Shown here piece after piece: positions 1,417 through 30,610 of a DNA stretch of 35,110 nt. A program made the translations under genes and the position numbers. The DNA is from Asterionella formosa. Taxonomy: Eukaryota. The stretch lies in contig NKIB01000118.1 of the NCBI GenBank assembly GCA_002256025.1, forward strand, positions 1 to 35,110, read 5' to 3'. Within the stretch, counting starts at the first letter, position 1; every line of letters begins with the position of its first letter. The notes below the pieces were generated by a model that saw nothing but the letters and a program-made list of their open reading frames with translations, was not told the origin of the DNA and searched no databases.

Positions 1417-1495
1417 GGAGGATACATACCTGTAGAGTTATCATCAGTGCGAGCTGATGTTTCTCTGTAGAAAGTACCACGTAACAGGTAAAGTA

Positions 1496-1599
1496 CCTGC
1501 AAGTTGCGGTAATTTTGCTGAAAAACTAAAGATTTAGCTATCTTTATCCCAGATTAAAATGTTACCGGTAGTTCAAGCAAAATGACCGCAACTTGCTGG
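1496..1599. mobile_element. MITE family K copy A (TA-flanked, Tc1/mariner-like ends)
   Basis: TA|CCTGCAAGTTGCGGTAATTTTGCT ... AGCAAAATGACCGCAACTTGCTGG|TA; ~24-bp TIR; core AAAGATTTAGCTATCTTTATCCCAGAT shared with copies B and C. Confidence 0.8.
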
Positions 1600-1760
1600 T
1601 ACCGGTACCAGGTACTATGTAGTCTACCGGTAGCTACCATGGTACCTGGTACCTCCAAGTTGCGGTAATTTGCTGAAACTAAAGATTTAGCTATCTTTAT
1701 CCCAGATTCAAATGTTTTTTAAGCAAAATGACCGAAACTTGCTGGTACCACCGGTACCGG
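1600..1760. repeat. (TA-CCWGG / GGTACC) degenerate palindromic array around MITE copies
   Basis: TACCGGTACCAGGTAC, GGTACCTGGTACC, TACCACCGGTACCGG. Confidence 0.75.
1652..1745. mobile_element. MITE family K copy B
   Basis: TA|CCTCCAAGTTGCGGTAATTTGCT ... AGCAAAATGACCGAAACTTGCTGG|TA; near-identical to 1496-1599. Confidence 0.8.
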
Positions 1761-1830
1761 CATTAAATTTCGGTTTATAAATATGCGTGATGCATCGGGG
1801 CAAAATATTTTCTTCATTAAGTTGGTCAGA

Positions 1831-2352
1831 ATGGATGTTAAGATATATCAGGCTCGAACTGCCTTCATTTTTAGTCTACTTTTCCTATCTCTTGCCATGA
1901 CCGTCAACGCCCTTACGAGCAAATTTCCCTCCCTCGTGCAGCCCATGGCAACATCGAAAGTCATGGGACTCTTCTTCGCAGCCTCATGGTGCCCGGATTG
2001 CACTGGTGTCACTCCTGTTGTAGATGAGGTTTTGAAAGGTTCGAATAGCAAGAATCTTTCAATAGTCTACGTATCATCTGACACTACTGAATCGCAAATG
2101 ATGAACTATGTTCCTAAAGGATGGATGACTGTGCCGTTTGGTCAAGTGGAGGAACGAACAGAACTCAAGCGTGAATTCGGTGCTTGTGCTGGCAAGGAAG
2201 CGGGGCCGCTGAGTATTTCACGCAAATTTGGGATTCCAACCTTGATCGTGGTTCAAAGTAACAGTGGCAAGGTATTGACAACGGATGGTGTCGATGATGT
2301 CATGAAGGACAAAGGTGGCGCTTTGCAAAAGTGGTTACAGATGATAGAATAG
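1831..2352 (+). CDS. Nucleoredoxin/tryparedoxin-like thioredoxin-fold protein (WCPDC active site) with N-terminal signal peptide; ORF open from 1783, Met 1831 preferred
   Basis: FFAASWCPDC, IVYVSSD, W..VPF and GIPTLIVV...G.VLT.DG motifs are typical of the nucleoredoxin/TryX subfamily. Hydrophobic FIFSLLFLSLAMTVNA leader. Confidence 0.85.
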   Translation: MDVKIYQARTAFIFSLLFLSLAMTVNALTSKFPSLVQPMATSKVMGLFFAASWCPDCTGVTPVVDEVLKGSNSKNLSIVYVSSDTTESQMMNYVPKGWMTVPFGQVEERTELKREFGACAGKEAGPLSISRKFGIPTLIVVQSNSGKVLTTDGVDDVMKDKGGALQKWLQMIE

Positions 2353-2726
2353 TGGCAAAGAAAAAATGAAAATGAGAGAAATACATACCGATATGTCGGA
2401 CTCCATCGTGGAGACTTGCGATTTAAATAAAATAATTAAACCCCAGTTATTTATCATTATGATATATGAAACATTTAAATAAATGTACATATGTTGGGTA
2501 TACCGGTATATATATGATTCATGTATAAGTGTGCCCTCCGTCCTATATACCGGCTGGAGCATCATAACATTTTTGTTCATATTCTGATGTAGCTGTCGTC
2601 AACACAGCTCTCTCCAAGCTCGTCGCCATTAAACCCATTCTCAATGATGCTTGTTCTACACTGCTCAATTCAGCAAGCACAAGTCACTTCAGTAACAACA
2701 AGGCATTCTATACCGACTGAATCACA

Positions 2727-5177
2727 ATGAAACGTCTATGTCTTCCCTTCCATAGCATGAGGATTGCGAAACGAATCATTTACAAGAACCGTTACTTCCC
2801 TTGTTCATATCACACATTACAATCCGAGACGTTATTTCATCGGCATCCAGGTACTCGAAGATTGGAAACCTCAATAATTAGTCCTATGTCGGACTCTGTA
2901 TCGACCCATTCACTTTCGCCAAAATACATGACCGACCTCGTGAAATCCGCCGAAGGAAGCTGGAACGATCAGGATTGGGACGCAGCTCTGCAGGGTGTTC
3001 AATTTTGGAAACTACATGAAGAATCTTCAGACTTGGTGTGGCACTTACTAGACCGGGCTTTTCAGGAAAATGGAGGGGGAAGACGATACAAGGCAATGTT
3101 AGGCGAGCTGCTTTCCATTTGGGGGGAAACTCCAGGTCAGAGTCCGGCAAATGAGGTATTGTCAAAACTACAGGACTTTCCACACCTGGCAAGTAAGCTT
3201 TACACAGATATTCACACCTTGACAAAAATTATTGACGCAGCGATCAAAAATGGAGAAGCTGATGCATATTTATTGGCGGAACATGTCATCGATATGTGTC
3301 CAAACATTGATCAAAAGTTTGCAGGTACTGCAATTAACGCTTTAGCAAAGAGTGGAGTCCCCGATGCGCCACAGCGAGCAGAATTCATGGTTGCAAAAAT
3401 GAAAAAGTCAGGTTTGCAACCCAACAGCATAACTATGAGCGCACTCATTGAGGTATGGGTTTGTAGTGGTCAGTCAGGAGCTGCTCAACGCGCTGAAGAA
3501 ATTCTTTTACAGGATCCTATTCCAGATGCTGGAATGTTTGGTTCTGTCCTCAAAGCGTGGCGTGATAATAGTGCAGATCGCTGCATCGAGTTTTTTTGGC
3601 GTTGGCAGAGGCTATCAGATAATGGTACAATCAAGGCCCACCCTACCAATGTTCACTATGGTACTGTAATAGACGCTTTTGCCAAGGAAGGCCGTGCACA
3701 AGAGGCGGAAAATGTCATGCAAGTCATGATGGACACCTATTCACGTACTAAAGACCCACAGCTGGCCCCGGATCGAATTCATTTCACCACGTTGATTAAT
3801 GCCAACAGGAACAATCCGGAAAGGGCCGAACAAATACTTAAGAGAATGCTTGTAATGGCAGAAAACCACCCGGCCTTGACTCCAAACAACATCACGTTCA
3901 ATGCAGTGTTAAAGGCATGGGCTAACCGAAGCAAATCATCCCCCTGCGCAGTCGAACGTGCCATGGCAGTTATGGATCAAATGAAACAATCGGGGATGGA
4001 ACCAGATACGACAACATACAATACCGTCTTGTCGTGTCTAGCCAACTCGCGAGGCGCCGACGCCCCTCGTAGGGCACAGGATATCATCAACACGATGCGG
4101 GTCACATCTGTCTCTCCCGACATTGTTACCTTCAACTCAGTGATCGATCTCCACGCAAAATCCAATGCACGGGATGCGCCCGAGCAAGTGGAAGCCCTTC
4201 TGAACGAGATGAGTGAATTCTGTGAACCAGATATAGTGACGTTCAATACTGCCATTTTAGCATGGTCAAGGAGTCGAAGAAGTGACGCAGTGTATCGAGC
4301 CGAAGAGTTGTTTCAGAAAATCAAGTCCCCAGACAAGTTTTCTTACAATGCGCTACTGGATACATATTCCCGGAATGGTAATACAGAAGAAGCGGAACAC
4401 CTTTTGAAGAAGCTTTGCCAAGATTCAATGGCCAATAAAGCCTCTTTTCGAACAATTATGAACTGCTGGGCAAAGAGCCGGCATCTGGACGCTGGATTTA
4501 AGGCTGAAGCTGCCTTTTGTCAAATGACAAAGAGGTTTGGCGAGCTCCGAAGTGAAGCCGTCAAGGACTATACTACGTTAGTGTCTGCATGGGCAAACAG
4601 TGGCAACCCCCAAGGAGCCACCAAGGCGAATGAATACTTGAACAAGCTGAAACTGATGGGTCTGTCACCAGATACCTCGTTCTACAGCGCAGTAATAAAT
4701 GCTAATGCGACCGTCGCCAGCAAGGACCCAGTGGCCATTCTTCGAGTTTTCGCCTTACTTGACGAAATGATGAAGTCAAAACAAGCTGCTCCCAATCTTA
4801 TAACATACAACTCAGTGCTGAAATGTTTGTCCCGGAGTAGTCTCATCGACAAGGCTAACAAGGCCTTGTCATTACTTAAGGCAATGGAGCGATCTGTCTC
4901 ACCTGATATTAGGACCTTGGACGAAGTTTTGGCAGCCTGTGCCTACTCGGATAAGAATTCCTCAACCGAGGCGCATCTCATTGCTTTTGAAGTCTTTCGA
5001 TGTGCCTGTGAGAGGTACCAACCGTCGGCACGTACATTTGGTCTATTCTTTCTAGCTGCTGTCGGCCACGAGAAGGAATTGAAATTCGCGTATCGCTTAT
5101 GTTGTGACATGGGATTTCAGAATGATCCGCAAGTGAGGAAGCATTTGGCAATGGTTGCTCCGCAGTTGATAAAATGA
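2727..5177 (+). CDS. Pentatricopeptide repeat (PPR) protein, probably organellar (mitochondrial-like presequence)
   Basis: 816-aa ORF with repeated ~35-aa units (PNNITFNAVLKAWA, PDTTTYNTVLSCLA, PDIVTFNSVIDLHAK, PDKFSYNALLDTYSR) and A..RAE.IL..M helices. N-terminus is Arg/Ser/His-rich and acid-poor. Confidence 0.93.
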   Translation: MKRLCLPFHSMRIAKRIIYKNRYFPCSYHTLQSETLFHRHPGTRRLETSIISPMSDSVSTHSLSPKYMTDLVKSAEGSWNDQDWDAALQGVQFWKLHEESSDLVWHLLDRAFQENGGGRRYKAMLGELLSIWGETPGQSPANEVLSKLQDFPHLASKLYTDIHTLTKIIDAAIKNGEADAYLLAEHVIDMCPNIDQKFAGTAINALAKSGVPDAPQRAEFMVAKMKKSGLQPNSITMSALIEVWVCSGQSGAAQRAEEILLQDPIPDAGMFGSVLKAWRDNSADRCIEFFWRWQRLSDNGTIKAHPTNVHYGTVIDAFAKEGRAQEAENVMQVMMDTYSRTKDPQLAPDRIHFTTLINANRNNPERAEQILKRMLVMAENHPALTPNNITFNAVLKAWANRSKSSPCAVERAMAVMDQMKQSGMEPDTTTYNTVLSCLANSRGADAPRRAQDIINTMRVTSVSPDIVTFNSVIDLHAKSNARDAPEQVEALLNEMSEFCEPDIVTFNTAILAWSRSRRSDAVYRAEELFQKIKSPDKFSYNALLDTYSRNGNTEEAEHLLKKLCQDSMANKASFRTIMNCWAKSRHLDAGFKAEAAFCQMTKRFGELRSEAVKDYTTLVSAWANSGNPQGATKANEYLNKLKLMGLSPDTSFYSAVINANATVASKDPVAILRVFALLDEMMKSKQAAPNLITYNSVLKCLSRSSLIDKANKALSLLKAMERSVSPDIRTLDEVLAACAYSDKNSSTEAHLIAFEVFRCACERYQPSARTFGLFFLAAVGHEKELKFAYRLCCDMGFQNDPQVRKHLAMVAPQLIK

Positions 5178-5244
5178 GTTGAAGACAAGGTACAATCTAG
5201 GGGTATCGTATTCTTCAAATCTCATAAGATCTTAAGAATTACCA

Positions 5245-5790
5245 TTAATCGTCGACAGGGCCAACCTGACCATTATTCCATGGAGATTCGGTTGCTTGAC
5301 GACGACCTACGAAATCATGTTGAATTTCTTCACGGTCACCAGGACTTCTAATGTCAACTTTGTCCCCATTAGTTGTATCTGTAGATGCTGCTGTCTTCGT
5401 TTTCTCTCGAGAACCATAGACGAAGGCAAGCCAAAACAAAGAGGCAACAACAAGTCCTCCTGTCGCGATTTTTATGTCTATCTTTGTCGCGGAGTTTAAC
5501 AAGAGGGTAGCAGTAAGGAGTCCAGCGCAGATCGTTGCCATCTTTGCCTCGTCTACATGCAGCACATCTCCTTCATGTAGTTCCTCCATACCACGAATGA
5601 TATTTCTCGTTTCATATTCCCTTTCTTTGTTGGTAGGAACAATCAAAACACGAGAACCATATCGCCGTACTTTTCGCATGTGCGTGAACGCCATTGGCAT
5701 TTGAAGCCAGCATATACAAATCAATAGAATCAGGGGGGTCCATGCAATATTAGCAAGTCTCCATGTCTTTCTCTGTACCGATCGGGCCAT
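5245..5790 (-). CDS. Hypothetical small membrane protein (signal peptide + AF motif, two TM helices; possibly plastid-targeted)
   Basis: 181-aa ORF convergent with the PPR gene. Hydrophobic leader ending PMA-F, basic transit-like segment, two hydrophobic helices (ATICAGLLTATLLL; IATGGLVVASLFWLAFVY). Confidence 0.7.
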   Translation of the reverse strand: MARSVQRKTWRLANIAWTPLILLICICWLQMPMAFTHMRKVRRYGSRVLIVPTNKEREYETRNIIRGMEELHEGDVLHVDEAKMATICAGLLTATLLLNSATKIDIKIATGGLVVASLFWLAFVYGSREKTKTAASTDTTNGDKVDIRSPGDREEIQHDFVGRRQATESPWNNGQVGPVDD

Positions 5791-6096
5791 GGTTGTTGCC
5801 GTCCCCTACACTTACGGCGATTGGAAACCACAGTCATTAATTATGCTTCAGAAAATTATTTGGAAATAGATTGACTGGTACATGCAGGTACACAGTATGT
5901 ATACCGTATGCATGTTGAGATGTTCCAGATCTCCTTGATAGTACTTACACATCTAGTGTCCATTACTACTAGTTCTCCACTAGCTAGTTTCTTCAACAAC
6001 ACTTTAATCTACTTTTAGATTTGCCTCTTTCAATGTTGTGATTACTTCAGATTACTTTTTCTATCAATCTTACCAAATTCTATCAATCCTGCCAAA

Positions 6097-6816: not shown

Positions 6817-7161
6817 GATATTTTGATGTGGCAGTGGGTTGCTTCCATAGATTTATTGTTGATTGTTGTTGTTCTCAATTGATGTTCATAATTGGCTGAG
6901 TCGGAACCGGTATAGCTATTAACAGTAGCTAGCATGCATGTACTGTCAACATGAATCCTACAATGGTACAAAATTGAACGCTGTTTCTACATGTTTTTGG
7001 GAGAAAAGTCTCCCCAAAAAGCTACTGCTGACAGGGCCGCAGAAAATATATGTGTTAAAAGCTAGAGGGGAATAAACATCAGCGCGGAAAAAAGGGGAGA
7101 ATTTCTGACCCAAAAATGTAGGAGGATCTCCTACATTCTCCCCATTTTTCCATGCTTCTTA

Positions 7162-8141
7162 AGGTTCCTGTATTTCAACCCTAAGGCAAAACTTAAATTA
7201 TTGCTTCGGGTTGCCAAAATTCCATGGAACTAAGAATTTATATGAGTTATTTTTGAATGACATGATTCAATTTGAAATATTTAAATCAGTGGAAATTTGC
7301 ACGTACATGCGTACATAGATTCCTTTTCGGATCCGCTAAATATACATAGACATTGTAGAATGCTAAATGTATATATACCAACGATTATGTTCCTTATATC
7401 CAACCTGGCAGCTCGGCAAATATTTGAAAGTGCACTCAACAAGTTGCACACGTATGATGTCCAATGATGATCATCTACTGGTACCTGTAGTAGATATAGT
7501 ATCGGCCTGCCGGCAGTACACCCAAGAAAATGTTACATGTGTAGTATCCAATGTGGCCAGTGTGGGTTTGCAATTCCTAGCACAATCAAACGGAGGATCA
7601 GTACATATATAATACTGTGTGCACTTACAATGGAATTTTAGGTACAGGAAATTTTATGACCAGCATCACAAGACTCTGATTCAGATGATGACGTTTTGGC
7701 GCTAAGTGGTTCTGATTCCGATTTTTGGAGACCGTAAAAAATGCGGATTTTGTCGAATTTTCGGACGATGAAAGCTCAATGTTGCTTTGCTGGGTCTAAA
7801 GGCGATTTAAATACATACTAGGTAACCTTCAAATAGCATCAGTATATAACTTCTGCCGAAAAACTGCGGAAAGGAACTTCGGTTTTTTATTATGCCAAAT
7901 AAAGTGATTTCTCCCGAAATTTCCACTCTTAATAGCATAGAAAAAACTGTAAGTTCCTTTCTGAAGTATCTCGCCAGATCATGTGTCCTGACGCATATGG
8001 AAAGGGTGCCTATTGGTGAAAGCTCCATTTGGCGATATACATTTATGTTTTTTTCTTCGTAAAAAGTGTGTGTTTGATTACTCTGACTCAATATTATTTT
8101 TTCAACCCTACCTCTAAACTAGGGTTGAATTGCAGGAACCT
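7162..8141. mobile_element. Non-autonomous TIR element, family H copy 2
   Basis: TTA|AGGTTCCTGTATTTCAACCCTA ... TAGGGTTGAATTGCAGGAACCT|TTA, a perfect 3-bp TTA duplication. Colinear with 456-1263 plus an extra segment at ~7501-7726. Confidence 0.82.
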
Positions 8142-10644
8142 TTATTAAGCCAAAGATGCCAGTCAAAATTATCCACACACAGGAAACAAAAGTAACATGC
8201 ATTAGTAATTTTCGGTACGTTTTCAACCTGTTTTCATTCTCCAAATCCAGGCATACCTTGTATTGGAGATCAATATTTTTTCCAATAAACCAAGGTACAT
8301 CTACTACAACGCCAATTATTGGTACAGCCACCAGAAAAAATGGGTGGCCCGCTATGACAAATTGGGCTAAATACATAACTTAAGGGTGGTGCATCAAATA
8401 TTAATTGTGATGCATCATATAAGATATATGATAGGAGAGGGAGTACACTTTTTTTGCCAAATATAAAGGCAAGTTTAAGAATGACTGCTACAGTACTACA
8501 GCGCTGATCACAGATTTTAGTGGTACGTAAGCTAGTACAGGGACCTTTGGGACCCAATAGTTAATAATTCCTAAAAATGACCGATTCAACATGACAATAG
8601 GCGCTATCCAAGCGTCCAACCAGGCAAAGAAAGAACAAATCATACTTGTGGGACAGAACCATACAATGGTGATGAAATCAAACAAAAAGAGAATGCAGAA
8701 AGAGGAGGAGATGAAAAAGCAAACCTAGATTAATGCAGGAGCGGTGAAAAACAGCGATTGCATGCATGTCGATTTGGCGTTTTACACTAACACTATGCAA
8801 TGTTGGGGAATTCATGGCAATGGTATCAACACAACGCAAACAGAAGAAGAACCAGACAAAGACAGCAACACGAGAAAAGAAAAGAAGAAATTTAACCCTT
8901 TTTCACTACAGTGAAAAGAAGCAAGAGGAACACAAGAATGTCGATATGCTAAACATTAACAAGAATAAAGAAGAAGACAGACATCTAAGCCGCGTATTAC
9001 GTGAAGTAACCATCACGTAAATAAGCCTAGTTGATTTTGAATGGATCACATAAATTAGTTCAATAGTACATCAAAATGCTTACTTGAATATATCTTTATA
9101 TTATCTCAATACATCACGTTAATTATTTGATCAGAGTATCATGCATGCATTCCTGATCATCACTATATTACGTGATCACCTTCACATAAACATTCGAAAT
9201 ACTTCACGTAATTATTTGAAATACTTCAATTAATTCTGTAATTTAGTTCACATTGCCTTATAATTTTGTTCACGTAATTCTATAATATAGTCCACGTAAT
9301 GTATTAAATTTTTTTACGTAATTTAAAAGTACTATCAAATATGTTGATTACTAATTCAATTACGACCGGTAATTCACATCACATGGGAAACAGATCTCGA
9401 TATGCAATCAAACAAAGCAGTTCTTTCAGAATGGCATCTCAGTTTTGAGAAGTCAGGCATTATGAGACATCTGTAAGGACAATGCAAGACAAACCGAAGC
9501 CGTTCATTCTGAATCAAAAAATTATTCACTCTTGAACAGGCATCATTATACGAAGTTGCAATATGAATGCATCGCACTGGCTTCCTTCTTGTCCTTGAAA
9601 TGACTTGCTTTGTCATTGACCTGCAACGATTTACATAGCAACAGTGTGTCAGTAATTAATTTAATAGAACTAGCAACAGCATAAAGCAACACACACATGT
9701 GCTATTCAACTGTTTCACGGAGTGCAGTCAAATTGACAGCAAGACACCGGCATTAGCCACCAGGCAGCACCGCAACTAACTGATGCAATCAAAAGAATGC
9801 TCCTGTTTTGAAATGGATGGCTAAAATGTAAAATAAATGTAGAGAACAATAGCAAAAGCTTGTGATTTATCGCTCGCTTTGCTGTTGTGATGACAAAAAC
9901 TGAGGATTAAGCTTACCTTAGTAAAATCTTCCATTGCGGGTCGCCATATTGCATCATTTCACCTTCTATCACTCCAGCTTTCAAAAGAACACTCCTTTTC
10001 TGAAAAGTCCTGTTCAAATGTCAAATGAATGTTGAGAACAGCAACATATCACTATGAATCATCTCGCTTGGTGATATGATAGCAAAAATAGCAAGAAAAA
10101 ATATTACCTTAAAAGCATCCATTGCGGAGGACAATCTCAATGTTGCATCATCCCACCTTTTGTTGGTACAACAAACCATTTGTGAGTTGATAAAAGATTT
10201 GTTTATAGCAAGGTAGCTGAAAATCTGGAAGGGGGATGCTAGTTGTAAGGGTCGTCCCCATGTTGAAAATAAATTGTTCACAGTGGTGTTGAATGTTGGT
10301 GTTTTTATGAATTAAGAGGGTCAAAATCCTGGAGTAGCCATGACTTCCTCTTGTACCAACAGAACCTACAATCTACACGAAAAAGTCTTGCTAACAATTT
10401 CGTCGGGACAAATTTCTGAGGCTACAAGTGTGACTTGAACAAATATAAGAAAAGGGAGAGGACACAGCCAATAGTTACTCCTAATTGCACATGCACTGGA
10501 TGATCTACCATCAGCCTTGTCTACTATAGTAAAAAAACGCCTGGATTTTATATTGAAAATAATCAACTGATGAGTCAACCAATTCACTTGCATGATGAAA
10601 TTTTAATCTGTTGTGTATTCCTCAATTCTGTGTGATTTGTACAT

Positions 10645-13785: not shown

Positions 13786-13855
13786 AGGGAATGGCTTAAT
13801 GGTTTAGCACGTTGCCTTTGATCTGAGGATGGGATGTTCGATTCCCGCCATTTTT
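13786..13855 (+). ncRNA. tRNA-derived Pol III cassette copy 1 (pseudo-tRNA/SINE head)
   Basis: A-box TGGCTTAATGG (13792-13802), B-box GTTCGATTCC (13836-13845), T5 at 13851-13855. Cloverleaf is degenerate. Confidence 0.5.
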
Positions 13856-14424: not shown

Positions 14425-14497
14425 GGGGAATGGCTTAATGGTTTGCACACATTCTGCAGTGGCGGGTTCGATTCCTGCATTCTCCATCTGTATTTTT
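14425..14497 (+). ncRNA. tRNA(Ala)-like Pol III cassette copy 2 with truncated anticodon arm
   Basis: GGGGAAT/ATTCTCC 7-bp acceptor stem with G3:U70 pair plus discriminator A; T-arm GCGGG-TTCGATT-CCTGC; A-box TGGCTTAATGG; T5 at 14493-14497; only 62 nt. Confidence 0.6.
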
Positions 14498-16375: not shown

Positions 16376-17881
16376 ATGTCTCGGTTTGTTTGTATCCAAA
16401 AAACTGGCCAAACGACGACCAAAACAACTTCCAGCAGCACTTTCAACTATTTGTTGTCAATGTTGGTGCAAAAAATAGTGTTCAACGATTATCTCGTCTA
16501 TGTTAGGCTACATATATGTGCGATCAGATGATAGTATTTCCTCTTCTGGGAAAAGGGTGTTGAGCCCAATAACTTTTCCATCCTGCCATTGTCACCTGCA
16601 GGCGACACTCCAGCATGCACATACCATTTTACTCTTCGCTTTGGCGACACTCCTTGGTGCTGGAAACCATACAAATCTTCTTTCATCATAGAGACAATTA
16701 CTGATTATACTTTAGCTTGTCGCAAGGCTGTCAAGAAGGTTTGGTCAACAGCCGAATTTACATTCGGAATGTGCTCTTATCATGCCTGGAATGCATGGGT
16801 AAGAAACAAGAAGAGAATGGGTGAAGAGTTCGAGGCATATAAGAGAAGTTCCTAGATATATAAAATTCCAATCCTTCGCGATTTGATGATTTTTAAGTGG
16901 ATCAACACATACAAGGAGGAGAAAGTTGCAACTGCATTGTTGCAACAATGGGGTCACACCATTCACACCAGAATTGAATTGAATAGTTCCAATCTACTTC
17001 GTGGTGGTTTGCCTGCACACAACAACAATACAGAGGGCATCAATAATGTTGAAAAATCATTCTTTGACCACAGGAAGCCCATGTTTGAGGATTGTTCCAA
17101 AGGGGCTCTATCATTTTGCTCCACTCTTCACCCATTGGTACATTCAATCAATGTCTACAAGTTGATTTATAGGCTCCTTGAGAAAAGCCAAAATGGAGAA
17201 GCTACATTTCTCACAGTGACATTTGATTTCAAGTGTGATGCAATTGGAATCGGAGAGGGTTCATTGTTGATTGCTACATTGTCTTTTGTAGACCTAAACA
17301 TTTTTCCACTATGCAAACAATGCAGTCCCAGAATACTGCAACTGCATTGTCACAGCATGGCTGGTCAGCTATCTCAATATCGAAAGAAGAGATATCATTA
17401 CATAGGGATCATGGAATCAGTTACTGCACTAACTGTTATGCAATTGATAAAGAAGAACAAAATGTATGATGAGTACAAGCGCCTTCTCCAAAATCCTGAA
17501 CAATATTCTGCTAACCACACATTTGATGATGTACTTTCCCTTACACGCAGGTTTCATATTGTTGAACCTATTGTGCCCAAGAATCAAAGCAATGATGTGG
17601 CTCTTAATAAATGTTTAGGAATTTTGGAAATGTGTGGATTGGGACCCATTTCTATTACCAGCTTGAAAGCAATGGGTAATGAAGGCCTCATATCTTGCCA
17701 TTGTCTCACATATTTAGCGAACGCGTGTTGTAAACATGCAGTTGCATTTGCATTTGAATGTGGAATTATTTCTAGTTTTCCGAAAACAATGCACCATCCA
17801 AAGCTACCTAGTATTAAGATAAAAGTTTCTGGATGAATCAAAGATGGGAAACCTGGAGGTAGCTTAGAATTTAATGGATGA
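16376..17881 (+). pseudogene. MULE/Mutator transposase C-terminal half (second D, CxxH, catalytic E, SWIM finger), frameshifted
   Basis: TITDYTLACRKAVKKVW...MCSYH (D at 16703, CxxH at 16772-16783); PAHNNNTEGINNVEK (E at 17033); SWIM SCHC..YLANACCKH (~17695-17737). Reading through TGA 17834 gives G*IKDGKPGGSLEFNG* ending at 17881. Start is approximate. Confidence 0.75.
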
Positions 17882-17925
17882 TTCTATTTATTAATAGAAC
17901 TAGCTAGTAGTGATTATAACAGTTG

Positions 17926-20640: not shown

Positions 20641-21402
20641 TTAGAAAGAGGCAATCGACCTGAGTATTTTGTCAACCACGGGGGGTTCTCGAATACATGG
20701 AGGGAGGTAGATTAGACTGCTCAACGTCGGAATATCTTTCCAGGTTGGAAGGCTCAAAATCGCATTTTCTGTTCCTTGAGACATAGGACTTCGTTTGACC
20801 GCAAGATCATGCTTGTTCTCCGCCACGAGGGGCAAGTCTTTCGCAAGAGTTGTCCACCATTTTTCAGGTGGGGCCTCTTGTGCTTCATTAATACCAGAAA
20901 TGGCTCGTTGGATACCGGGAGGCAGGTGGATCCTTTGTTCCGAGACCGATGCGATCGAGGGGGCGGGCTCCACCTCCGGCTGTACATTGTCTTCGACGAT
21001 TTCGACTTCGACATCACCATAATCATTTGGAGGAATTGCTCTGGTTTGTAAATACTCAACAGGCAACAGCACTTCTACAGGTGGCTTCAACTCAGTGGCA
21101 TCCAATGAGGGGGCGCCGATTGCACGAAGAGATACATCGTCCCAAAGGGGGCAGCTATAGACAGCGTCGGGCACTGTTGGAGGTAGAATCGGTTCATTGT
21201 TCCTGCATGGGACCAAGTTCTGATTGAGAAGGTCAGGGCTAGGAGGTTGATAGTCCTCGGATATCGAAGTTATTTCTGAAGATTCCTCGCTTTCTAAATG
21301 TTTTTTCTTTCCGGCTCGAACAGAGAGCTTTCTGACGAACTTGAACGGCTGGAACCTTCGCTTACAGGTGACTTCCATCACTGAGATCGTATCTCCCGTC
21401 AT
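20641..21402 (-). CDS. Hypothetical Pro/Glu-rich protein
   Basis: 253-aa uninterrupted ORF, more GC-rich than its flanks; no recognisable domain. Confidence 0.6.
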   Translation of the reverse strand: MTGDTISVMEVTCKRRFQPFKFVRKLSVRAGKKKHLESEESSEITSISEDYQPPSPDLLNQNLVPCRNNEPILPPTVPDAVYSCPLWDDVSLRAIGAPSLDATELKPPVEVLLPVEYLQTRAIPPNDYGDVEVEIVEDNVQPEVEPAPSIASVSEQRIHLPPGIQRAISGINEAQEAPPEKWWTTLAKDLPLVAENKHDLAVKRSPMSQGTENAILSLPTWKDIPTLSSLIYLPPCIREPPVVDKILRSIASF

Positions 21403-22020
21403 GGTTTCTGGCAGTTCGGGTGGTTGAGGCTATAATATCGAACAATGTTTAAAAGTGAAACAATCAAGCGGGAAGACAATCGGAGTGTGCCGAACCTTCA
21501 GATGTCCTCCTTGGTGTTTTGAAAACGTCTCAATACTTGTTATTTATTTGAAAAGTTGAGTGCGGCATATATATTGTGGATATTCCTCTATGTGTTTATG
21601 TCAATCATTCGATATCTTTGTCAGCATATAAACATAAATATTTATCAATAATCGATCCCATGCTCTATGCAACACCAAGATACGACCAATGAAAAATGCA
21701 TGTATAGCCCTCAAAGTGGGCATAGCTCTATTCATGGCTGTGAGAAATTATGGCTAGCCGGCTCCAAGTCTCGTCCTCTATATAACATCGGTAATAGTTG
21801 ATGGCATTGCTGCTGGAAGACGTGGAAAATCTTTCAACAAATTTTATTTTACGTGGACGAAGGTAGCTACCGGTAGGTAAATCGTTAGCAGCGGCTGGTG
21901 GGTCCGGCAACATCCCAACGCCCAGCACCCTGGCAGCACAAAAATAAAAATTTTGAGGTTTGAAGCAATTGAGAAACTTCATACCGGCATGCATGTAGCT
22001 CCTTCCTGACACTGATCGAT

Positions 22021-22200
22021 TACCTGGTACCAGGTACCAGGTACCTGGTACCGGTACCTGGTATCAGGTACCTGGTATCTGGCACCTGGTATCTGGCACC
22101 TGGTATCTGGCACCCGGTACCAGGTCGAACGAGTACTGGTACCAGGTAGTGGTCCCAAGGCAGGTACGGAACAGGTACCCTGGTACCAGTACCAGGTACT
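22021..22200. repeat. (TA-CCWGG)n palindromic heptamer array
   Basis: TACCTGGTACCAGGTACCAGGTACCTGGTACCGGTACCTGGTATCAGGTACC..., with a 14-bp higher-order unit CACCTGGTATCTGG. Confidence 0.85.
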
Positions 22201-23033
22201 AACTTCTTAGCTATGTCGACCAATCGAAATTTGTGCCAACATAGCAAAATCTCCAAGTATGGTAGACTTCGAAGGAAAAATACGACCGGTAAACCATCCT
22301 GCAGATTTGCCTTGGATCGGGTCCAATCAAAATACCGGATTCATATGATTTGACGAATGGATTCGGTTACAGCACTTCGCTATTGAATACGTAAACCTCT
22401 TTGTCGAAATTTTGGAAGTCCAGACCACGATTGCCTGCATGATGACGACGACACCACCAACTTGAGAAGCCACCACAACTCATAGAATCTGGTAGTTGGT
22501 AGCATGTGGCAGGCAAAACATAGGATTTCTGTTGGGATTCCCGGAATGTATTCTGTGAACGTGCGAGGACCGCGGGGGAGAGACTCTGGTGTGGTGCCGA
22601 TGTCCATAGTTATACACATCGCTCGTGTGACGTTGTCACCCCCTTAAAATCATTGGCTCTATGGATAAGAATACTCTCTGATGGATTACGGTACCCCGGT
22701 ACCAGGTAATCTAGAAGAGATGAGCCACCAAAATTGAACATAACGAAGAAGCCGAGCGCACATCGATTCATGCGGTCCATTTTGTCCACCGGTAGGTACG
22801 AATGTATTCACCAGCAGCATTTCTCATCCACGAATGGTACTTCCAGCACGATTGCTTTAATTAAGGCAATTCTTGAATTTTTGACACCTCTGCCAACACC
22901 TCCATGAGCACGACTCCATTATACCCCCTCCCCCCCCCTCCCCTTGCAACAATTGCAACTAGTCTCATAAAATACCTCGCTTGGTAAAACATTCTGTCAT
23001 ATTCACATACCTGAACTGAACTAAAGTAGAACC

Positions 23034-23918
23034 ATGAGATCGAACAGAAGTCCAGATTCTGAAAAAGTAAACACAACGAAGAACAGTTCCAAAAACCTTG
23101 AAAATATTCACCATACTGCAGTTGCTGTGAATTTGTCCAATGATATTGACGATTCCGATGCTGGCAGTATTAAGAGTAATCCATCAGTTCTGAGGAGCAA
23201 CACGCGCAATGGCAGCAGGGTCATCAATTTAGCTTTTGCACCAATAGTTGCTGGTACTGCTTATGGCATCTACGCATTTTTAGGTAACAAGGGCATTGCT
23301 CCGAAAAGCCCCAATACCTTTCGGAATCCAAGCGATCAGGGTTTACGGGAAATTTTGATATCAGAACTGGCATTGCACAATACCGCAAGCAATTGTTGGC
23401 TAGCAATATATGGCAATGTATATGACCTGTCGAAGTATTCAAAACAGCATCCAGGAGGATCCTCTGCCATCACAAGTTTGGCTGGGATGGAAGCTACTCA
23501 GCAATATAGTGCTCACCACAATGAAAGATTATTGCAAACAATTTCAAGTACATTGATTGGAAAACTTGTTGATACTCTTTCCTCTTCAACAGCCACACCT
23601 TCTTCTGTCACTGCAAAGAATCAGGTTACAGTTGAGGAGTTGGTATTGCACAATACAGCCAGCAACTGCTGGATTGCAATCTATGGCAATGTTTATGACT
23701 TGACGAAGTATTCAAATCAACATCCAGGAGGATCCTCTGTCATTACAATTTTGGCTGGGATGGAAGCTACTCAGCAATTTAGCGTTCAGCACAATGAGAA
23801 GTTACTGCAAACAATTCAAGGCACTTTGATTGGGCAACTTGTTACATCCTCCTCGTCAAATGCACCAACAACAGCAACAAGCTCATCTTCACAAAGCAAC
23901 ACTAATGGGGAAGACTAG
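23034..23918 (+). CDS. Membrane-anchored protein with two tandem cytochrome b5-like heme-binding domains
   Basis: Two copies of EL.LHNTASNCW.AIYGNVYDL.KYS.QHPGG.S.IT.LAGMEATQQ...H; one TM segment (LAFAPIVAGTAYGIYAFL) upstream. Confidence 0.9.
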   Translation: MRSNRSPDSEKVNTTKNSSKNLENIHHTAVAVNLSNDIDDSDAGSIKSNPSVLRSNTRNGSRVINLAFAPIVAGTAYGIYAFLGNKGIAPKSPNTFRNPSDQGLREILISELALHNTASNCWLAIYGNVYDLSKYSKQHPGGSSAITSLAGMEATQQYSAHHNERLLQTISSTLIGKLVDTLSSSTATPSSVTAKNQVTVEELVLHNTASNCWIAIYGNVYDLTKYSNQHPGGSSVITILAGMEATQQFSVQHNEKLLQTIQGTLIGQLVTSSSSNAPTTATSSSSQSNTNGED

Positions 23919-24548
23919 AAACATGGTGTTAAATTTGGGTTCTCTACATTGTATAGAGAAGCAGATATGATGCAAGGTATATACAGTATGTGCTATACAA
24001 AGGTATGAAATGATACATTTTAACCAAGAAGTTGTTGTAGGTGATGACTGCACATGCAGGGTCCCTGACAAAATGGTTTTAGTTCCACCTTACACAATCA
24101 ATACCACTTCAAAACTGTAAGCCTCCATCTTCTGACTGTAAATTTTTAAGTAATACAATAATGAAAACTTGATGCAGGTACTAAGGGAATGTTAGACTAT
24201 GGGCCGAATTCAACAAATAAGTAATCAACCATCAAGATTTGCTTAATTTTTCCAATTAAGATTGTTGCATAGCAGTGGCTTACTTACAGTGCATATTGAT
24301 TAACATGTACATGTGTTGTATACCTTTCCTCCCAAACCGTGATCATGTTTACTCCATTTACACTACAAAAATTCTTTTCCTAATAATTTACAATTTATTT
24401 GTTTGATCAATACACTATTAGCTAGTGATATTTGTTAGGGTACCAGGTACCAGTACTTGCTGGTACGAGTACAGAAGTTTTGGTAAATAAGAAATTTAGC
24501 TGTGTTTTCCTTACAGTAAAACCCATATTTTTACCACAACTCCCAGTA

Positions 24549-27500
24549 CCTGCAAGTTGTGGTAATTTTACTGAAATTGATAATGTGACGCAGGACAGGC
24601 GCTCAAAAGACTATGTTTTGTTTCACAATTAAATTTTAAAGTATGTTTAAACTAACTAAAAATTGCACTTGTGCTGAGACAACATTGCAGTGAAATTAGG
24701 ACTGTCGCTTGCGCACCCTTGGACGTTGCCCATGACCACATTGCCATACTGGAGCGAGGCAAAGCCGACCTTTATCTGTGATGTTCTGATTTTCTGCCTG
24801 AGTCTGCTGCCATGTATGAGCGCATGATCAACTGTATGCACCCATTGTCGTTTTTGTCATAAAGTATGTCGATTAATTCGCTTGCACTGCAACAGGAAGA
24901 AGAAATACAGATTTATCCTTCTCTAAGACTCTGTTTTGATCGTTGTTGTATCTGTTCTGTATCTGGCCATCCACTTCTGTTTTCATCTTGATAAGTTGTT
25001 CCTCCAGCCCTTTGTCTGTCCATATAATTCCGTTTTCTTATGATCCAACTATTCACTCCCATTCGCCATAAAACCATGATAACATGTTCACTGCACTGTT
25101 CTGCCTGAATTCAATGTGCTAATCCCTTTCTTTGTTATATGTAATGGTAGTCAGCTTCCATTTAAAATTGAGTCTTCCGCTAAAAGCTTGGTCCCACCCA
25201 AAATCCATCTGATTCATATATGCTTCAAAAGTTAAATACCCCACCATGTTTGAACTTTGCGGAATGATACTACCCTCCCAACGCACATGTTCATTGGCAA
25301 GCCATTGTTCTAGTCCCTGTTTGAGGTTTTGACGAACATAAGGGCAAGAACCCGATCCCTTTATTATTGAATTCATGTTTTGCTTCCATAATTTAGTCCT
25401 TGATGAATTTGCAGATGGGCACCAAATCACAAGATTGATGTCTTTGTTTGTGTTTTCGTTCCTCGGTCGTAAAGTTTCCAACCATGGCTGTGTGGCACTT
25501 GAAATTTTATTGACGAGGGAGCCATCAGAGGCTAGCACTAGTTTTCCGTTGCATAACTTTGGGCCAAATTCTTCCACATTGTTGGGAAATTTATAATCAC
25601 TCATAGCCGAATCTAAAAAACTAATCTAATGAAGACGAGTATGCGTCAATGTGGTGGTCTTCATGAACTAGACTTGAGACCGTGTAACTAGCTTGTGCTC
25701 ATCGTGAAGATGATCTTGGCGGAAACCCGCCGGTGATTGCAAAGTCCTCTCCCATTTTGATTTTTATAGTGACCGGAAGTAAAATGGCCGAAAAGCAGAA
25801 TTTTATAGTTTATTCCCTAGAAAAGATTCGGAGGAATACCCTGGATGGTGATAAACCAGGAAGATTCCTTTTTCTGTTTGTTGAACAAGATTCATGGTCG
25901 CCATATCCATTTGAGAAAACCCTTTTCTGATGACAACTGGCCAAGTCTGTCCATGGTTCTAGTTGCTGGGTTCGCAAGCGGCGATAGATCAGAGACATAC
26001 AGAAACATCTGGTTATTGTTTTTTAAGACGCCATGCTCTTGTGGAAGGCTGTGATTGATGTGGCCATGTGAAAATACTCCTGCAATCATGGCATTTCTGT
26101 CCCTGGAGGTAATTAGATAAACTAGTATGAAGGTGCCAACCCATCTCTAACGTCTTCTAACGTAATTACCTGTAAATATAATCGACATGCTTTTAATCTC
26201 TTCAATTACTTTGGTTTCAAGTGAAACTGTGGAAGTGGAAACACCTCCATCAGAAATTATTATTCATTTTTTGTAATCGAAGTTGCCAAGAAGTTTCTAT
26301 GCGTTCTTTTCCCTGGATTTGATTGATTGATAAACTTCCAGGCTGAGGTAATTTAAATTGTCTCAATATATCGTAAAGTCCCACAATGCCCATTTGAAGT
26401 TGTACATGTTCGATGATGATATTTAAGAACTGTGCGATTTCATCGTGTTGACATAGGTGGCCCAAGATCAATTGTATTTGTGCTATTCCTTGATCTGTTC
26501 ATGTATCAGTGAAAATGAAGGCTCCAGCAAGATTTGGAGGTGCAAAGGAAATATGGCATTTTTCTATTTTATTGAATCCTATCCTTGTGAAAGGCGCCCA
26601 AAAAGAATAAATAGAGAACGTCATCAACTCTATCTTTGAATCAATAGTATCACGACTTGTTAGTGAAGTAAATAATTATTTCATCTAAACGCGGAAATGT
26701 CAAAACCAGGGAACTGGCTGAAAAAGAAAATGACAATGACCGGGGCAATAGAGGGGCGGCCCGAAGCAAAAGAAAGCAAGTCTTGCTTACTTTGCTTTAT
26801 TCGCTCCAAACTAAAAATTGTTCTCTTTTTCCGGCCAAAGTGGCTGATGAAAACATCCAATCATTGAACGGTTCTATATTTATTAGAATTTGAACATTCA
26901 AATGCTAGCGTTATCACATGTAACAGCTAGTGGTACCAGGTACCCGATATGGTAACAATTATACCAAACCACCATATGCATGCTGGCTGGGCTCGTCAAT
27001 GCTGCTCAGGCTACTTGAGGTAGCACTCATGAGTGCTTGTATATAATTATTTAGCTTAGATTATTCGATTCTTTAGTAGTACATATATGTATTATTGCCG
27101 CAAAAAGGATGCATTGTGAAATGGGAAGAATGGAAGCGTGATGGTGATGGATTTCAAAATTGTTGTTTGCTAACCAGTATAAGTATTGGTATCCTGTGTA
27201 TTTTCTTCATTATATGCATGTAGTTGACAGTCAATATACCTGGTAGCCTAGTAACAGCCATGAGTATGTCATGTACATACATAGTTTATAATAACTATAC
27301 TTTATGGATGAATAAAACCAGAACTAGTTGTGTCCATTTATTTGGGCACAAGTGCAATTATTGGATAGCTTTAACATGCTATAAAATTTAATTGACATTA
27401 TATAATAGTTATATTGGGTCATTGGTATGATGATGCTAGCAGTTATGAGTTTCTAGTACCAACAACTTTGAAACCATTAATGAAGATACATTGTTTTCCT

Positions 27501-27776
27501 CACTTTGGCTGGAAAAAGAGAATGATTTTGAATTTTGAGAGAATAAAGCAAAGTAACCAAGACTTACATACTTTTTGCTTCTGGCTGCCCCTCTATTGCT
27601 CTGGTCATTGATGTGTATTGATGTTTCCCTGGTTTGAAGAATAAATTAGCACAAAACCTCACAAAGTGGCGATCATAACAGAGACGATTTTTAAGAGTGA
27701 ATTGATGACGCTTTTTATATAGAAATGCAGTCCTGCGTCACGTTCTCAATTTTAGAAAAATGACGCAACTTGCTGG
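24549..27776. mobile_element. Foldback-type TIR element (long family-K relative, TA-flanked), left arm split by a LINE insertion
   Basis: TA|CCTGCAAGTTGTGGTAATTTTACTGAAATTGATAATGTGACGCAGGAC pairs with GTCCTGCGTCACGTTCTCAATTTTAGAAAAATGACGCAACTTGCTGG|TA. The arm resumes at ~26607-26920 and is the reverse complement of ~27425-27720 (e.g. GCAATAGAGGGGC / GCCCCTCTATTGC; TTACTTTGCTTTATTC / GAATAAAGCAAAGTAA). Confidence 0.78.
24611..26591 (-). mobile_element. 5'-truncated, internally deleted non-LTR retrotransposon (diatom Ambal-like)
   Basis: TSD AGGCGCTCAAAAGA (24597-24610) / AGGCGCCCAAAAAGA (26592-26606). Motifs in order: GHLCQH...EHVQLQMG, LKACRLYLQVITLEDV, WPHQSQPSTRAW, RNase H start LASDGS, QMDFGWDQAFSGRL..KW, LWRMGVNSWIIR. 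Confidence 0.75.
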
Positions 27777-28325
27777 TACATGGCAGTGCAGTTGGTAGGT
27801 ACCAGGTACTGTTTTCAGGTTCCCTACTGGTATATCGCAAGGGATTGTGATACATAATAAACAGGTACCTGGTACCAGTCTATCAAAGTCCAAGGACCTT
27901 ACCGGTTGTACCAGTACCAGGTACCTTGTACCTGGCACCATATATCATACAAAGACCGGAAACATACGGTACCTGGTACGAGGTACCTGGTACCTCTAGT
28001 CTACCAGTACGTATGCAGCCTGATGATGAGGACGGTGAGTTGTGCGTTTCCTTTTTTGTGTTTGGCTCTGAGGATGAATCAGAATTGCATTCGCATGCAG
28101 ACATTACACCAATGACTCTGAGCGATGCTACCTACCTGGTACCTGGTACCAGGTGGTACTCATGTTTGATCGTACCTGATAGGTTCCTGCTACCTGTAGA
28201 CGAAGGAAGGAGCCAAAGAACCGAGTGGTAGTACCAGGTACCTGGTACCTGGTCCCAGGTAATGGGAGCCCGTAGAAAAAAAGTAATTTGCTTGTTATAC
28301 TACTAACAACATACCGGTACATACC
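27777..28325. repeat. Dispersed (TA-CCWGG)n arrays upstream of the sigma factor gene
   Basis: Clusters at ~27795-27810, 27863-27940, 27968-28010, 28130-28160, 28228-28260. Confidence 0.8.
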
Positions 28326-28487
28326 CCGCTGCTAATGATCATCAGATCTTGCGTCACCTTTGCATTGATGACTAATAATAATAATACACTCAACATGATG
28401 CGTGGTTGTTCCGATGTTAAAACTTGCCAAGCCTCTCACAATAAATGGAACAATCGAACTATCCATCAACCTATCATCCAGCCATCA

Positions 28488-29702
28488 ATGACAGCAGCCG
28501 AGTCAAGAATGGGTAGAAGGAGACTGAAGCGAAGTGCCCTTCTGGCATTTTGCGCCTTAACTTTCTGTCGTTCGGCAATGCCTGCTACGACCGAAGCCTT
28601 CGTCCCGTTTGCTGGGGTCTCTCGCACCTCCTCCTCCTCCGCCGTCTTCATGACTACCGGTACACCCGCTCTATCCACCCGCCTCACTCTGGAAGAAGAG
28701 GCAAACCTTCTACGTCAATCCGCTGAGCTCAAACGCCTCGTCACCTTGGCAAGGGAGTTGCCTCCAAGCTCCTTGACACTGGTCAAATCAAAACACGCTG
28801 GCTACGGCAACGACATTTCCGCATATGAACTCGCACTGGACCTTGGTCACGCCGCAAGGAATACCCTCGTCACCCGCAATATGGGACTGGTATATTACTG
28901 TGCGAAGGACGTGGGGCGAAGCCTGAACTCGTTGTCCAAGGATGATTTGGTACAAGAAGGAGCCATTGGACTTGCACGAGCTGTGGACAAGTTCAATCCA
29001 TACTTGGGGACCAAGTTTAGCACATATGCTGTGTATTGGATAAGGGCGGCAATGTTTAGGTGCATAGCGGAGCGAGACGATATGCTGCGAGTCCCGTCCC
29101 ATGTGGGGGACGCGGTACGGAAGATGACGCAAGCCGCGAAGAGGCTGGGGGTGGAAGTGGACGGAACACGGGTCTTGAATGCATGGACTGAATCATCGAG
29201 GGAGGCACTATGGAAGGAAGCCTCAGCTGCCAAGGCACTGGCGGAAGAAGCAGGCCTTTCTGACAAACAACTAATGGAGGCTATGAAAGTGAGGCAGCGG
29301 CGTTTGACTGGAGGTTATGTGTCATATGAGAGTTGGATGCAAAAAGGACAATCGATGCAGGTGGATTTAGAAACTGTAGCGACATCAGCAACAGCAAGCC
29401 CTGACAAAGAAAAGATGAAATTAGCCCTGGCTCGCTATTTGAGACCAAAGGAGATCGAAGCCCTCAGTTGGCGATATGGGCTCACCGAAGTACCTCGCGA
29501 CTATTTCAAACAAGCGGAACAACACATCTTTGGCGAAGACGCTATAACAAAGGGAAAATGGGGGGAAGCCATGAGCTTTACGGAAGTGGGCAAACAAATG
29601 AAATGTTCAGCGGAATATGGACGAAAGCTGTGTAACAAGGCCTTGGAAAAATTACGACAAGCAGCCGATCAAGGAACTTTGGAGCCAGCGTTTTTGTTTT
29701 AA
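28488..29702 (+). CDS. Plastid-targeted sigma-70 family RNA polymerase sigma factor (ORF open from 28335; Met 28488 or 28509 preferred)
   Basis: Region 2: LVTRNMGLV...DLVQEGAIGLARAVDKFNP..GTKFSTYAVYWIRAAM...RVP. Region 4: LRPKEIEALSWRYGL...MSFTEVG...KALEKLR. Bipartite leader ALLAFCALTFC...TEA-FVP followed by a Ser/Thr-rich transit peptide. Confidence 0.92.
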   Translation: MTAAESRMGRRRLKRSALLAFCALTFCRSAMPATTEAFVPFAGVSRTSSSSAVFMTTGTPALSTRLTLEEEANLLRQSAELKRLVTLARELPPSSLTLVKSKHAGYGNDISAYELALDLGHAARNTLVTRNMGLVYYCAKDVGRSLNSLSKDDLVQEGAIGLARAVDKFNPYLGTKFSTYAVYWIRAAMFRCIAERDDMLRVPSHVGDAVRKMTQAAKRLGVEVDGTRVLNAWTESSREALWKEASAAKALAEEAGLSDKQLMEAMKVRQRRLTGGYVSYESWMQKGQSMQVDLETVATSATASPDKEKMKLALARYLRPKEIEALSWRYGLTEVPRDYFKQAEQHIFGEDAITKGKWGEAMSFTEVGKQMKCSAEYGRKLCNKALEKLRQAADQGTLEPAFLF

Positions 29703-30049
29703 CAATCTCAAACGACGAAGAGAAACAAACTGTATTTACAACAATGTAATATAATTCCTACTAGAGCTAAACCAGGTGTTAAGTCAATTCACTACGTACA
29801 CTCCTTCTGCTACTTCACTATTAACGTCATATTCGTTCACACGTTTGCCCTTCCTCCATGACTTTGGAAACACGTTGTCTCTTAAAAATCCTGAGTACTA
29901 TAGCGCAGTATTACCTCCAGAGTACTCGATATTCCCCTTTGTTTTACTGACTTGAGCTGGGCCTTCGTTAAATTTGTCAACTTTCAAGGCAGCATCAAAA
30001 GGAATAATTATTCGATGGCAACTTTAATTAACTCATATACCAAGATTAC

Positions 30050-30610
30050 ATTCCGGTACTGGTACCTGGTACCATAACTGAGGAGTTCCAGGTACCCTGG
30101 TACCTGGTACTGGTAGGCTGTACACCTGAACCAGCGAGGACCAGGTACCCCTGGTATCAGGTACCAGTACCTGGTACCTGGTACCAAGTACCGGTACGAT
30201 ACCACTGGTGCTATGGTACCCGCTAGGGTATCTGGTACCAGCCAGGTACAAGCAAGTTGCGATAATTTTGCTGAACTAAAGATTTAGCTTCATCCCAGAT
30301 CAAATAGTCTACCGGTAGCAATTTATTAAGCAAAATGACCAAATCTTGCAGGTACCACGTCTTTTACCGATACCTGGTACCAGGGAACCAGTATCGGTAA
30401 GTAGTCAACAACCTCATACCAGGTGGTACTAGTACCAGGGGTACGAGGGTATGGTACCACCTCGTAACTGGTGTACCTAGGGGTATACCAGGTATCCTCT
30501 GCTCTGCTGATGGCTGTGAACTAATACCGAATGTGTGCACACTCGTCCATAAAGCAACACCGACGTACTCCGTACCTGAGGATTTTCAACCATCGTACCA
30601 GGTACCTGAG
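30050..30610. repeat. (TA-CCWGG)n arrays upstream of the ankyrin gene
   Basis: Dense GGTACC/CCWGG units at 30053-30250 and 30350-30500, plus hairpin TTACCGATAC...GTATCGGTAA (30364-30400). Confidence 0.85.
30249..30352. mobile_element. MITE family K copy C
   Basis: TA|CAAGCAAGTTGCGATAATTTTGCTGAACTAAAGATTTAGC...AGCAAAATGACCAAATCTTGCAGG|TA. Confidence 0.78.

Follow-up and report, generated by a model that had tools for sequence, protein, structure and literature searches.

Introduction

The cut-and-paste transposons that come closest to the system described here leave short scars when they excise. For the Stowaway and Osmar elements, the available part of the published work (PMC1925063) describes scars in which 1–4 nt from the terminal inverted repeat (TIR) are kept beside TA duplications, with a new element being able to insert beside an old scar, and for Mos1 the available excerpt reports cleavage of the non-transferred strand at 3 nt inward of the element end (PMC5481204). 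In the comparison of DNA-transposon excisions between Asian and African rice, the accessible text describes scars that are complex and variable, with 8/94 being “perfect” (PMC4423477). Excision scars are usually treated as rare, variable, and confined to single sites. In the 35,110-nt stretch of DNA from the diatom Asterionella formosa that was analyzed here in full (contig NKIB01000118.1 of assembly GCA_002256025.1, hereafter the window), what look like such scars appear stereotyped and abundant, forming arrays of short TA-bounded units in and around a family of small inverted-repeat elements designated K.

An initial annotation of this DNA had proposed that the arrays are accumulated excision footprints of the co-located elements. 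The analysis reported below shows that the units match the K ends, that K is associated with them, and that they are gained at TA dinucleotides, from which it appears probable that the TA-bounded CCGG, CCWGG, CCAG, and CTGG are excision scars of K or of its siblings with CCWG...CWGG ends.

TA-Bounded Units and Their Match to the K Ends

The units occur between TA dinucleotides far more often than expected by chance, with the expectation taken as the mean of 200 first-order Markov simulations of the window and given here in brackets: CCTGG was found 17 times (0.10), CCAGG 15 (0.09), CCGG 12 (0.18), CCAG 9 (0.41), CTGG 6 (0.35), and CCTG 5 (0.42). The five units named in the initial annotation (CCAGG, CCTGG, CCGG, CCAG, and CTGG) are thus real, at 6–17 occurrences each against 0.1–0.4 expected. 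The palindrome GGTACC is present 59 times in the window, compared to 0–17 times for twelve other 6-bp palindromes.

For the comparison with the element ends the window was supplemented with metagenomic loci. A degenerate TIR pattern, used to scan metagenomes, matched 120 loci, which are mostly chance matches in unrelated organisms, and 13 of these, judged by their GGTACC-rich context, were taken as diatom K loci. The window and the diatom loci, about 50 kb together, hold 148 canonical units, 68 of which are solitary. The proposal that the units are combinations of the first and last 2–4 nt of the element is borne out both by the decomposition of the spacers and by K-specific remnants. In the window and 12 diatom loci, 75/269 of the inter-TA spacers of 4 nt and 88/245 of those of 5 nt consist of a K left-end prefix followed directly by a right-end suffix, a form open to only 2% of the possible 4-mers and 0.6% of the possible 5-mers. 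Longer remnants between TAs were also found, namely CTTGCTGG (0 + 8 nt), CCAGCCAGG (5 nt of the left end and 4 nt of the right end), CCCTGG in two copies, and CCATGG. Among these, CTTGCTGG and CCAGCCAGG contain K-specific end bases, and their chance expectation among spacers of the same length is approximately 0.017 (140 spacers) and 0.008, respectively. Duplicated TAs thus enclose a few bases identical to both K ends, which is the form that an excision scar would take.

The K ends themselves lie next to such units more often than the availability of TA would provide for, as a canonical unit adjoins 6/21 of the TA-flanked K ends, compared to 148/3308 of the spacers overall (P = 2e-4). In a hand count, the TA was preceded by GG (or followed by CC) at 13/18 TA-flanked K ends, a context found at 8.6% of all TAs. 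This association agrees with a feed-forward process of insertion and excision, and is compatible both with a target preference and with scars left by local hops.

Distribution of the Arrays

Within the window, the array between the first two K elements (K1 and K2, positions 1600–1651) reads TA CCGG TA CCAGG TA ... TA CCGG TA GC TA CCATGG TA CCTGG TA, with its CCATGG corresponding to 3 + 3 nt of the K ends, and further units follow to the right of K2 (1746–1760, TA CCACCGG TA CCGG...). The largest array, composed of mixed units, occupies positions 22021–22200 in the divergent intergenic region upstream of a cytochrome b5 gene and contains the annotated 14-bp higher-order repeat, which is placed here at approximately 22077–22118. 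A small array (TA CGG TA CCCCGG TA CCAGG TA) is found at 22688–22706 and another at 24436–24471, the latter including TA-CTTGCTGG-TA (24454–24465), whose inner sequence equals, as had been noted initially, the final 8 nt of the right end of K. An array cluster at 27797–28262 lies upstream of a sigma-70-like gene, and the array to the left of K4 (30053–30248), which includes TA-CCAGCCAGG-TA (30236–30248), is followed on the other side of that element by scattered units at 30353–30607. Open reading frame (ORF) spans cover 9.3 kb of the window and hold 1 of its 65 canonical units, a TA-CCGG-TA on the forward strand (28655–28662) that lengthens the sigma-factor ORF by 6 nt in frame; the other 64/65 are outside. 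Each of the window's intergenic regions that holds the 5′ side of a gene contains arrays, and the genes with arrays upstream are those for the thioredoxin-like, cytochrome b5, sigma-70-like, ankyrin, and FGGY-kinase proteins.

The public sequencing runs that contain sequence of the window are labeled as algal and freshwater metagenomes, and for the comparison of depth and alleles the contigs of four of these (X1, X2, X6, and X7) were aligned to positions 21000–30900, with the indels and contig joints cited below being among those listed. In X1, the bin with the 22021–22060 part of the largest array had a summed contig depth, a quantity that does not equal copy number, of 235,249, compared to 608–845 in the adjacent bins (approximately 300-fold), and a similar excess was seen in X2, X6, and X7; the repeats drew contigs by the thousands. 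The contig tails leaving this array agreed with each other only at 0.34–0.44. Because of this excess depth and because the tails are mutually unrelated, many unrelated loci must carry such arrays, and the arrays are dispersed through the genome.

The K Elements

Three of the K elements in the window, all of them on the forward strand and with TA on both sides, are compact: K1 (1496–1599, 104 bp, with an internal TA-CCGG-TA at 1563–1570), K2 (1652–1745, 94 bp), and K4 (30249–30352, 104 bp, with an internal TA-CCGG-TA at 30310). A 75-bp K-related MITE (miniature inverted-repeat transposable element; 24472–24546, forward strand, ends CAGAAGTTTTGGTAAA / TTTACCACAACTCCCAG) is likewise flanked by TA and stands directly before K3 (24549–27776, forward strand), formed by two K-type ends that have a long TIR and span approximately 3.2 kb. 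In K1–K4 and the 75-bp relative, the sequence after the TA starts with CCTG, CCTC, or CAAG and the sequence before the closing TA ends with CTGG or CAGG, so the elements are real, TA-bounded, and close to the terminal forms initially given for them. The TIR of the family is CCWGCAAGTTGCGG, and that of K1 extends over 27 nt with 93% complementarity. The elements measure 94–104 bp, copies with unrelated flanks are present in 12 metagenome loci, and the K consensus continues in 33 X1 contigs at position 30289.

The initial statement that all K elements sit in or against the arrays is roughly right. K2 has units on both sides, K1 on its right only, and K4 on its left, with more found 13 nt to its right; for K3, there is an array beyond the 75-bp element on the left and another one 20 nt to the right.

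At all 8 ends of K1–K4, and at 21/27 K-type ends when 11 independent loci were included with the window, TA is found no more than 6 nt from the TIR core. The tetranucleotide GTAC was considered as the duplicated target and rejected, as the right flank of locus L033 (GG|TATG) and the left flank of locus L066 (TTA|CC) fit TA only; TA, and not GTAC, is the target duplicated by K. The family shows TA duplication, TIRs, small size, no coding capacity, and many dispersed copies, which are the features by which MITEs are defined. Because it is TA that is duplicated, K can be classified on structural tests as a putative non-autonomous cut-and-paste family of approximately 100 bp, Stowaway-like and of the Tc1/mariner type.

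An autonomous partner, which the initial annotation had suggested could be found by means of the K TIR, did not emerge from a Pfam search of the K3 ORFs, an atlas search, or scans of genome and viral contigs. A Pfam profile search of 10 ORFs from K3 left nine without a match at E ≤ 1, the tenth giving DUF6906 at E = 0.12, which is below the cut-off, and a tighter K pattern gave 0 matches in genome contigs and 0 in viral contigs. K3 itself was rejected as the autonomous partner for now, having no credible Pfam match, a single-copy interior, and atlas hits below 0.9. Its longer TIR of approximately 47 nt is also present in locus L095, and between its ends in the window lies about 1.6 kb of DNA, single-copy by depth and lacking a credible match in Pfam. 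The interior could be a captured host fragment, or K3 could be two separate ends. Nested in K3 at 26734–27610 is a high-copy inverted-repeat element with arms of 75 nt (85%) and 38 nt (89%), which reaches approximately 80–160 times the single-copy summed depth in X1, above that of K.

Differences in Units Between Alleles and Copies

The most direct view of how units arise comes from two metagenome loci from different samples, L033 and the reverse complement of L061, which are homologous over approximately 1.3 kb (1294 shared columns, 41 mismatches), with L102 being a third allele of the same locus. Between L033 and L061, 5/7 internal gaps are TA-bounded units, with lengths of 6, 6, 7, 7, and 13 nt (GGTACCT, AGTACCA, GTACCG, TACCGG, and TACCGGTACCTGG), the two remaining ones being a GC and a tandem duplication of GAGAT. 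At one site, the alleles read 'gagagTAtcatc' and 'gagagTAccggTAtcatc', i.e. a unit was gained at a lone TA in unique sequence, and a second lone-TA case is found in the opposite allele. At another site, 'TAaaTAccggTA' compared to 'TAccggTAaaTA', CCGG stands at the first TA of a 'TAaaTA' in L061 and at the second one in L033, and two independent events must therefore have taken place. From approximately position 1780 of L033 onward, the two otherwise near-identical loci are unrelated after '...gagagccgct', owing either to a structural difference or to a join made in assembly.

The copies of K provide a further comparison, as in an alignment of 11 of them the insertions relative to the family majority are units placed at consensus TAs. 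K1 carries GTTACCGGTAGTT (GTTA-CCGGTA-GTT) where the majority, five copies, has GTTAGTT, and L061 reads TTA-CCGGTACCTGGTA-AGC where the other K copies have TTAAGC, with several units also following GATTTA in the K copies of L033, L061, and L005. When written with their flanking TAs, lone units have the form TACCGGTA and TACCWGGTA.

Within the window, contigs of run X2 lack 7 nt at two places, at 27797 (unit 27798–27804, missing from two contigs) and at 30595 (unit 30596–30602, missing from one contig), the difference at each being TA versus TA-CCAGG-TA, and at neither place does exact tandem copying of the shorter allele yield the longer one. Ordinary indels between strains were seen in the same run as well, an 8-nt tandem duplication (TTCTGATT) at 24783 and one additional TA in a short TA run at 30673. 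The loci L040 and L097, which were tried for comparison, belong to a different organism without arrays and were uninformative.

Taken together, these differences show gains of units at TA dinucleotides, some of them lone TAs outside any array. Slippage is unable to seed units where there is only a lone TA; a process by which TA is duplicated and CC..GG left behind can do so.

Origin of the Units and Arrays

In the mechanism that is considered here, each flank would keep its TA and 2–3 bases of the element end when the element leaves, and end joining would then produce TA-CCGG-TA or TA-CCWGG-TA. With ends of the form CCT.../...TGG, overhangs of 3 nt that pair by one base would result in CCTGG, or in CCAGG for the other orientation, trimming or a 2-nt stagger would result in CCGG, and the loss of one base in CCAG or CTGG. 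Joining of 3 + 3 nt would give CCATGG or CCTAGG, both of which were observed. As every scar would add a TA and, beside another scar, would create GG-TA-CC, the usual context of K ends, scars would be expected to cluster, and tandem duplication with a 7-bp period would lengthen and partly homogenize the clusters. In our reading, the arrays are started and made diverse by scars and are extended through tandem duplication.

A more tentative extension of this mechanism, which we regard as possible though doubtful, treats the scars as self-propagating landing pads that offer recognized bases together with a fresh TA, with the transposase presumably preferring scarred sites. Elements would then return to them, scar gain at TAs near an element would equal or exceed the rate of point mutation per site, and most 5′ intergenic regions would gain GGTACC arrays. 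The arrays would in that event be a slippage-blurred record of transposition and a raw material for promoter evolution. If excision is indeed the cause, the diatom would offer a natural system in which cut-and-paste activity and local hopping can be read from sequence alone, and one in which a transposon creates a microsatellite and its own preferred target. This would also explain the repeats that break assemblies of this organism, many contigs of which end at arrays.

It has to be noted that a number of observations weigh against excision as the source of the units. Among the listed contig joints of the four runs, which represent cross-mapping between arrays, and the metagenome loci, no pair was found in which one allele has K where the second has a unit; of what had initially been predicted for such allele comparisons, the single-unit gains at TAs are thus present, and none is paired with the loss of a K element. 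Where polymorphisms lie outside K copies, a unit lost between short GTAC(C) repeats would be indistinguishable from one gained, and a paralogous pair of another TIR element (430–1275 / 7135–8155), which was used as a test of polarity, turned out to be uninformative, as GGTACCAGGTACC of copy 1 is not at a TA in copy 2. The approximately 10 unit events compared to at most 41 substitutions in the 1.3 kb of L033/L061 imply a very high event rate, given that the family was seen in no more than some tens of contigs. At 6/27 K-type ends there is no TA within 6 nt, and no transposase was found for K among the K3 ORFs by Pfam or in the atlas search, all hits of which were under 0.9. Finally, adjacent units resemble each other too much: canonical neighbors are identical in 20/52 cases, compared to 12.1 ± 2.8 in shuffled order (P = 0.007), and adjacent CCWGG pairs share the same W in 20/26 (window 3/6, loci 17/20), where independent insertions in random orientation predict about half. 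This share is as high as in the slippage repeats of bacteria (93/110 among the listed matches), and the contrast with bacteria in other respects is inflated, since three consecutive units were the criterion by which the bacterial loci had been chosen.

These similarities between neighbors speak for regarding the arrays as ordinary 7-bp microsatellites that grow by slippage or unequal exchange, in which case K would merely prefer targets rich in GGTACC/GTAC and the likeness of units and ends would be a by-product. The 14-bp higher-order repeat and the allele differences of exactly 7 nt inside arrays fit this explanation, as does the occurrence of (GGTACCW)3 in at least 110 prokaryote contigs (L121–L230) from many bacterial phyla, which carry no K element. 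Because these bacterial repeats are homogeneous (among the listed matches, 92% of the spacers have 5 nt and 201/395 neighbors are identical), the GGTACCW motif can evidently expand by slippage alone. They often stand directly beside other heptamer repeats (GGTATCA, GGCACCT, GGGTTTC...), and several metagenome-assembled genomes have 4–7 loci; in viral contigs the array pattern had 0 matches. A slippage microsatellite would, however, have uniform units and change only within an existing repeat, and the diatom arrays differ on both counts, with 58% 5-nt units, 18/94 identical neighbors, a mixture of unit lengths (4 nt in 30, 5 nt in 71, and 6–7 nt in 18), and many singletons among their units. 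Slippage also cannot create units at a lone TA in unique sequence or in a MITE whose consensus has none, neither of the two X2 differences arises by exactly duplicating the shorter allele, and the remnants with K-specific bases find no place in it, all of which makes slippage an unlikely explanation for the arrays as a whole. As identical neighbors exceed chance, tandem duplication nevertheless contributes to the arrays, and to a larger extent than was implied by the initial remark that slippage or unequal exchange could lengthen them; the number of units is therefore not a count of transpositions. The arrays accordingly do not record independent events in pure form.

The units could also be scars or micro-insertions made by an agent other than K, such as another TA-targeting family with CC...GG ends or templated end joining from nearby arrays. 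As sequences, CCGG and CCWGG are generic, any ends of the form CC...GG being enough to give them, another high-copy element of the window has CCAGGG...CCCTGG near its ends, and K is far rarer than the arrays by summed depth in X1 (approximately 40-fold compared to 300-fold), to which the lack of a K excision allele among the alleles compared can be added. Set against this are CTTGCTGG and CCAGCCAGG, which reach into K-specific sequence, the strong association of K ends with units, the fact that clear TA duplications in the window are found only in the K family, and the TA duplication accompanying every unit, which templated repair would leave unexplained; an agent other than K is accordingly thought improbable. 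Selection of the arrays as cis-regulatory repeats with a GTAC core in 5′ intergenic regions, their origin being secondary, would account for their presence upstream of the genes and their near absence from ORF spans, yet exclusion from ORFs is expected for any insertion of 4–7 nt, and the fast turnover of units between close alleles, as well as their presence inside MITEs, is unlike conservation, so that this explanation is given very little credence. Excision of K or its siblings, followed by tandem duplication, thus remains our preferred reading.

Genes and Other Features of the Window

The window has a G+C content of 41%, and its ORFs encode eukaryote-type domains, namely thioredoxin-like, PPR, tandem cytochrome b5, sigma-70-like, ankyrin repeats, and FGGY kinase; a scan of the window for tRNAs found none. 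The protein with two cytochrome b5 domains results from an internal 203-nt duplication that is 85% identical (23368–23570 / 23641–23843). At 16856–17836 there is an open frame of 326 aa whose C-terminal stretch is rich in Cys/His and for which Pfam gave no match at E ≤ 0.01, and the many broken frames around it, between 8 and 20 kb, look like decayed repeats. The other TIR element mentioned above, with ends GGTTCCTGTATTTCAACCC..., is present in two copies at 446–1268 and 7160–8146 that are approximately 85–90% alike and differ by an internal indel of approximately 220 bp, GGTACCAGGTACC being present in copy 1 and absent from copy 2; its TTA-like flanks are read as Tourist/Harbinger-like.

Comparison with Known Systems

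Among the scanned results of full-text literature searches, there was no description of GGTACC arrays or of accumulated scars in diatoms. The words footprint, MITE, mariner, excision, and satellite are all absent from the preprint 10.1101/2025.10.24.684338, and in PMC4486113 excision is mentioned only in the reference list.

The closest likeness is to the Stowaway MITEs of the Triticeae beta-amylase intron and to Osmar5 in yeast, which, according to the available part of that study (PMC1925063), share with K the TA duplication, the short TIR scars, and the occurrence of several scars per site. The Triticeae work, as far as that part goes, follows one site across genera, whereas the diatom has what appear to be stereotyped CCGG/CCWGG scars, 148 of them in about 50 kb, arranged in multi-unit arrays. 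Unlike in the Stowaway system as described there, the putative diatom scars are a leading class of indels between near-identical alleles, and the TIR (CCWGCAAGTTGCGG, as given above) differs. From the excerpted account of the mariner Mos1 (PMC5481204), K resembles that element in its TA target and in donor flanks that would keep 3 end bases, a 1-bp overlap of CCT.../...TGG giving CCTGG; the Mos1 stagger is assumed for K, and CCGG would fit a 2-nt stagger or trimming. The rice comparison (PMC4423477) is similar in showing scar variation genome-wide and in having mariner-type non-autonomous elements that are active with no polymorphic autonomous partner found, and differs in that the accessible portion of its text describes no arrays of repeated scars and no re-targeting.

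The bacterial (GGTACCW)n repeats, which serve as a comparator for slippage only, are like the diatom arrays in being a 7-bp tandem motif in non-coding stretches, and unlike them in being homogeneous, in lacking a K element, and in often lying beside other heptamers. Relative to all of these systems, what would be new in the diatom is that stereotyped scars build palindromic arrays genome-wide and are among the commonest indels between close alleles.

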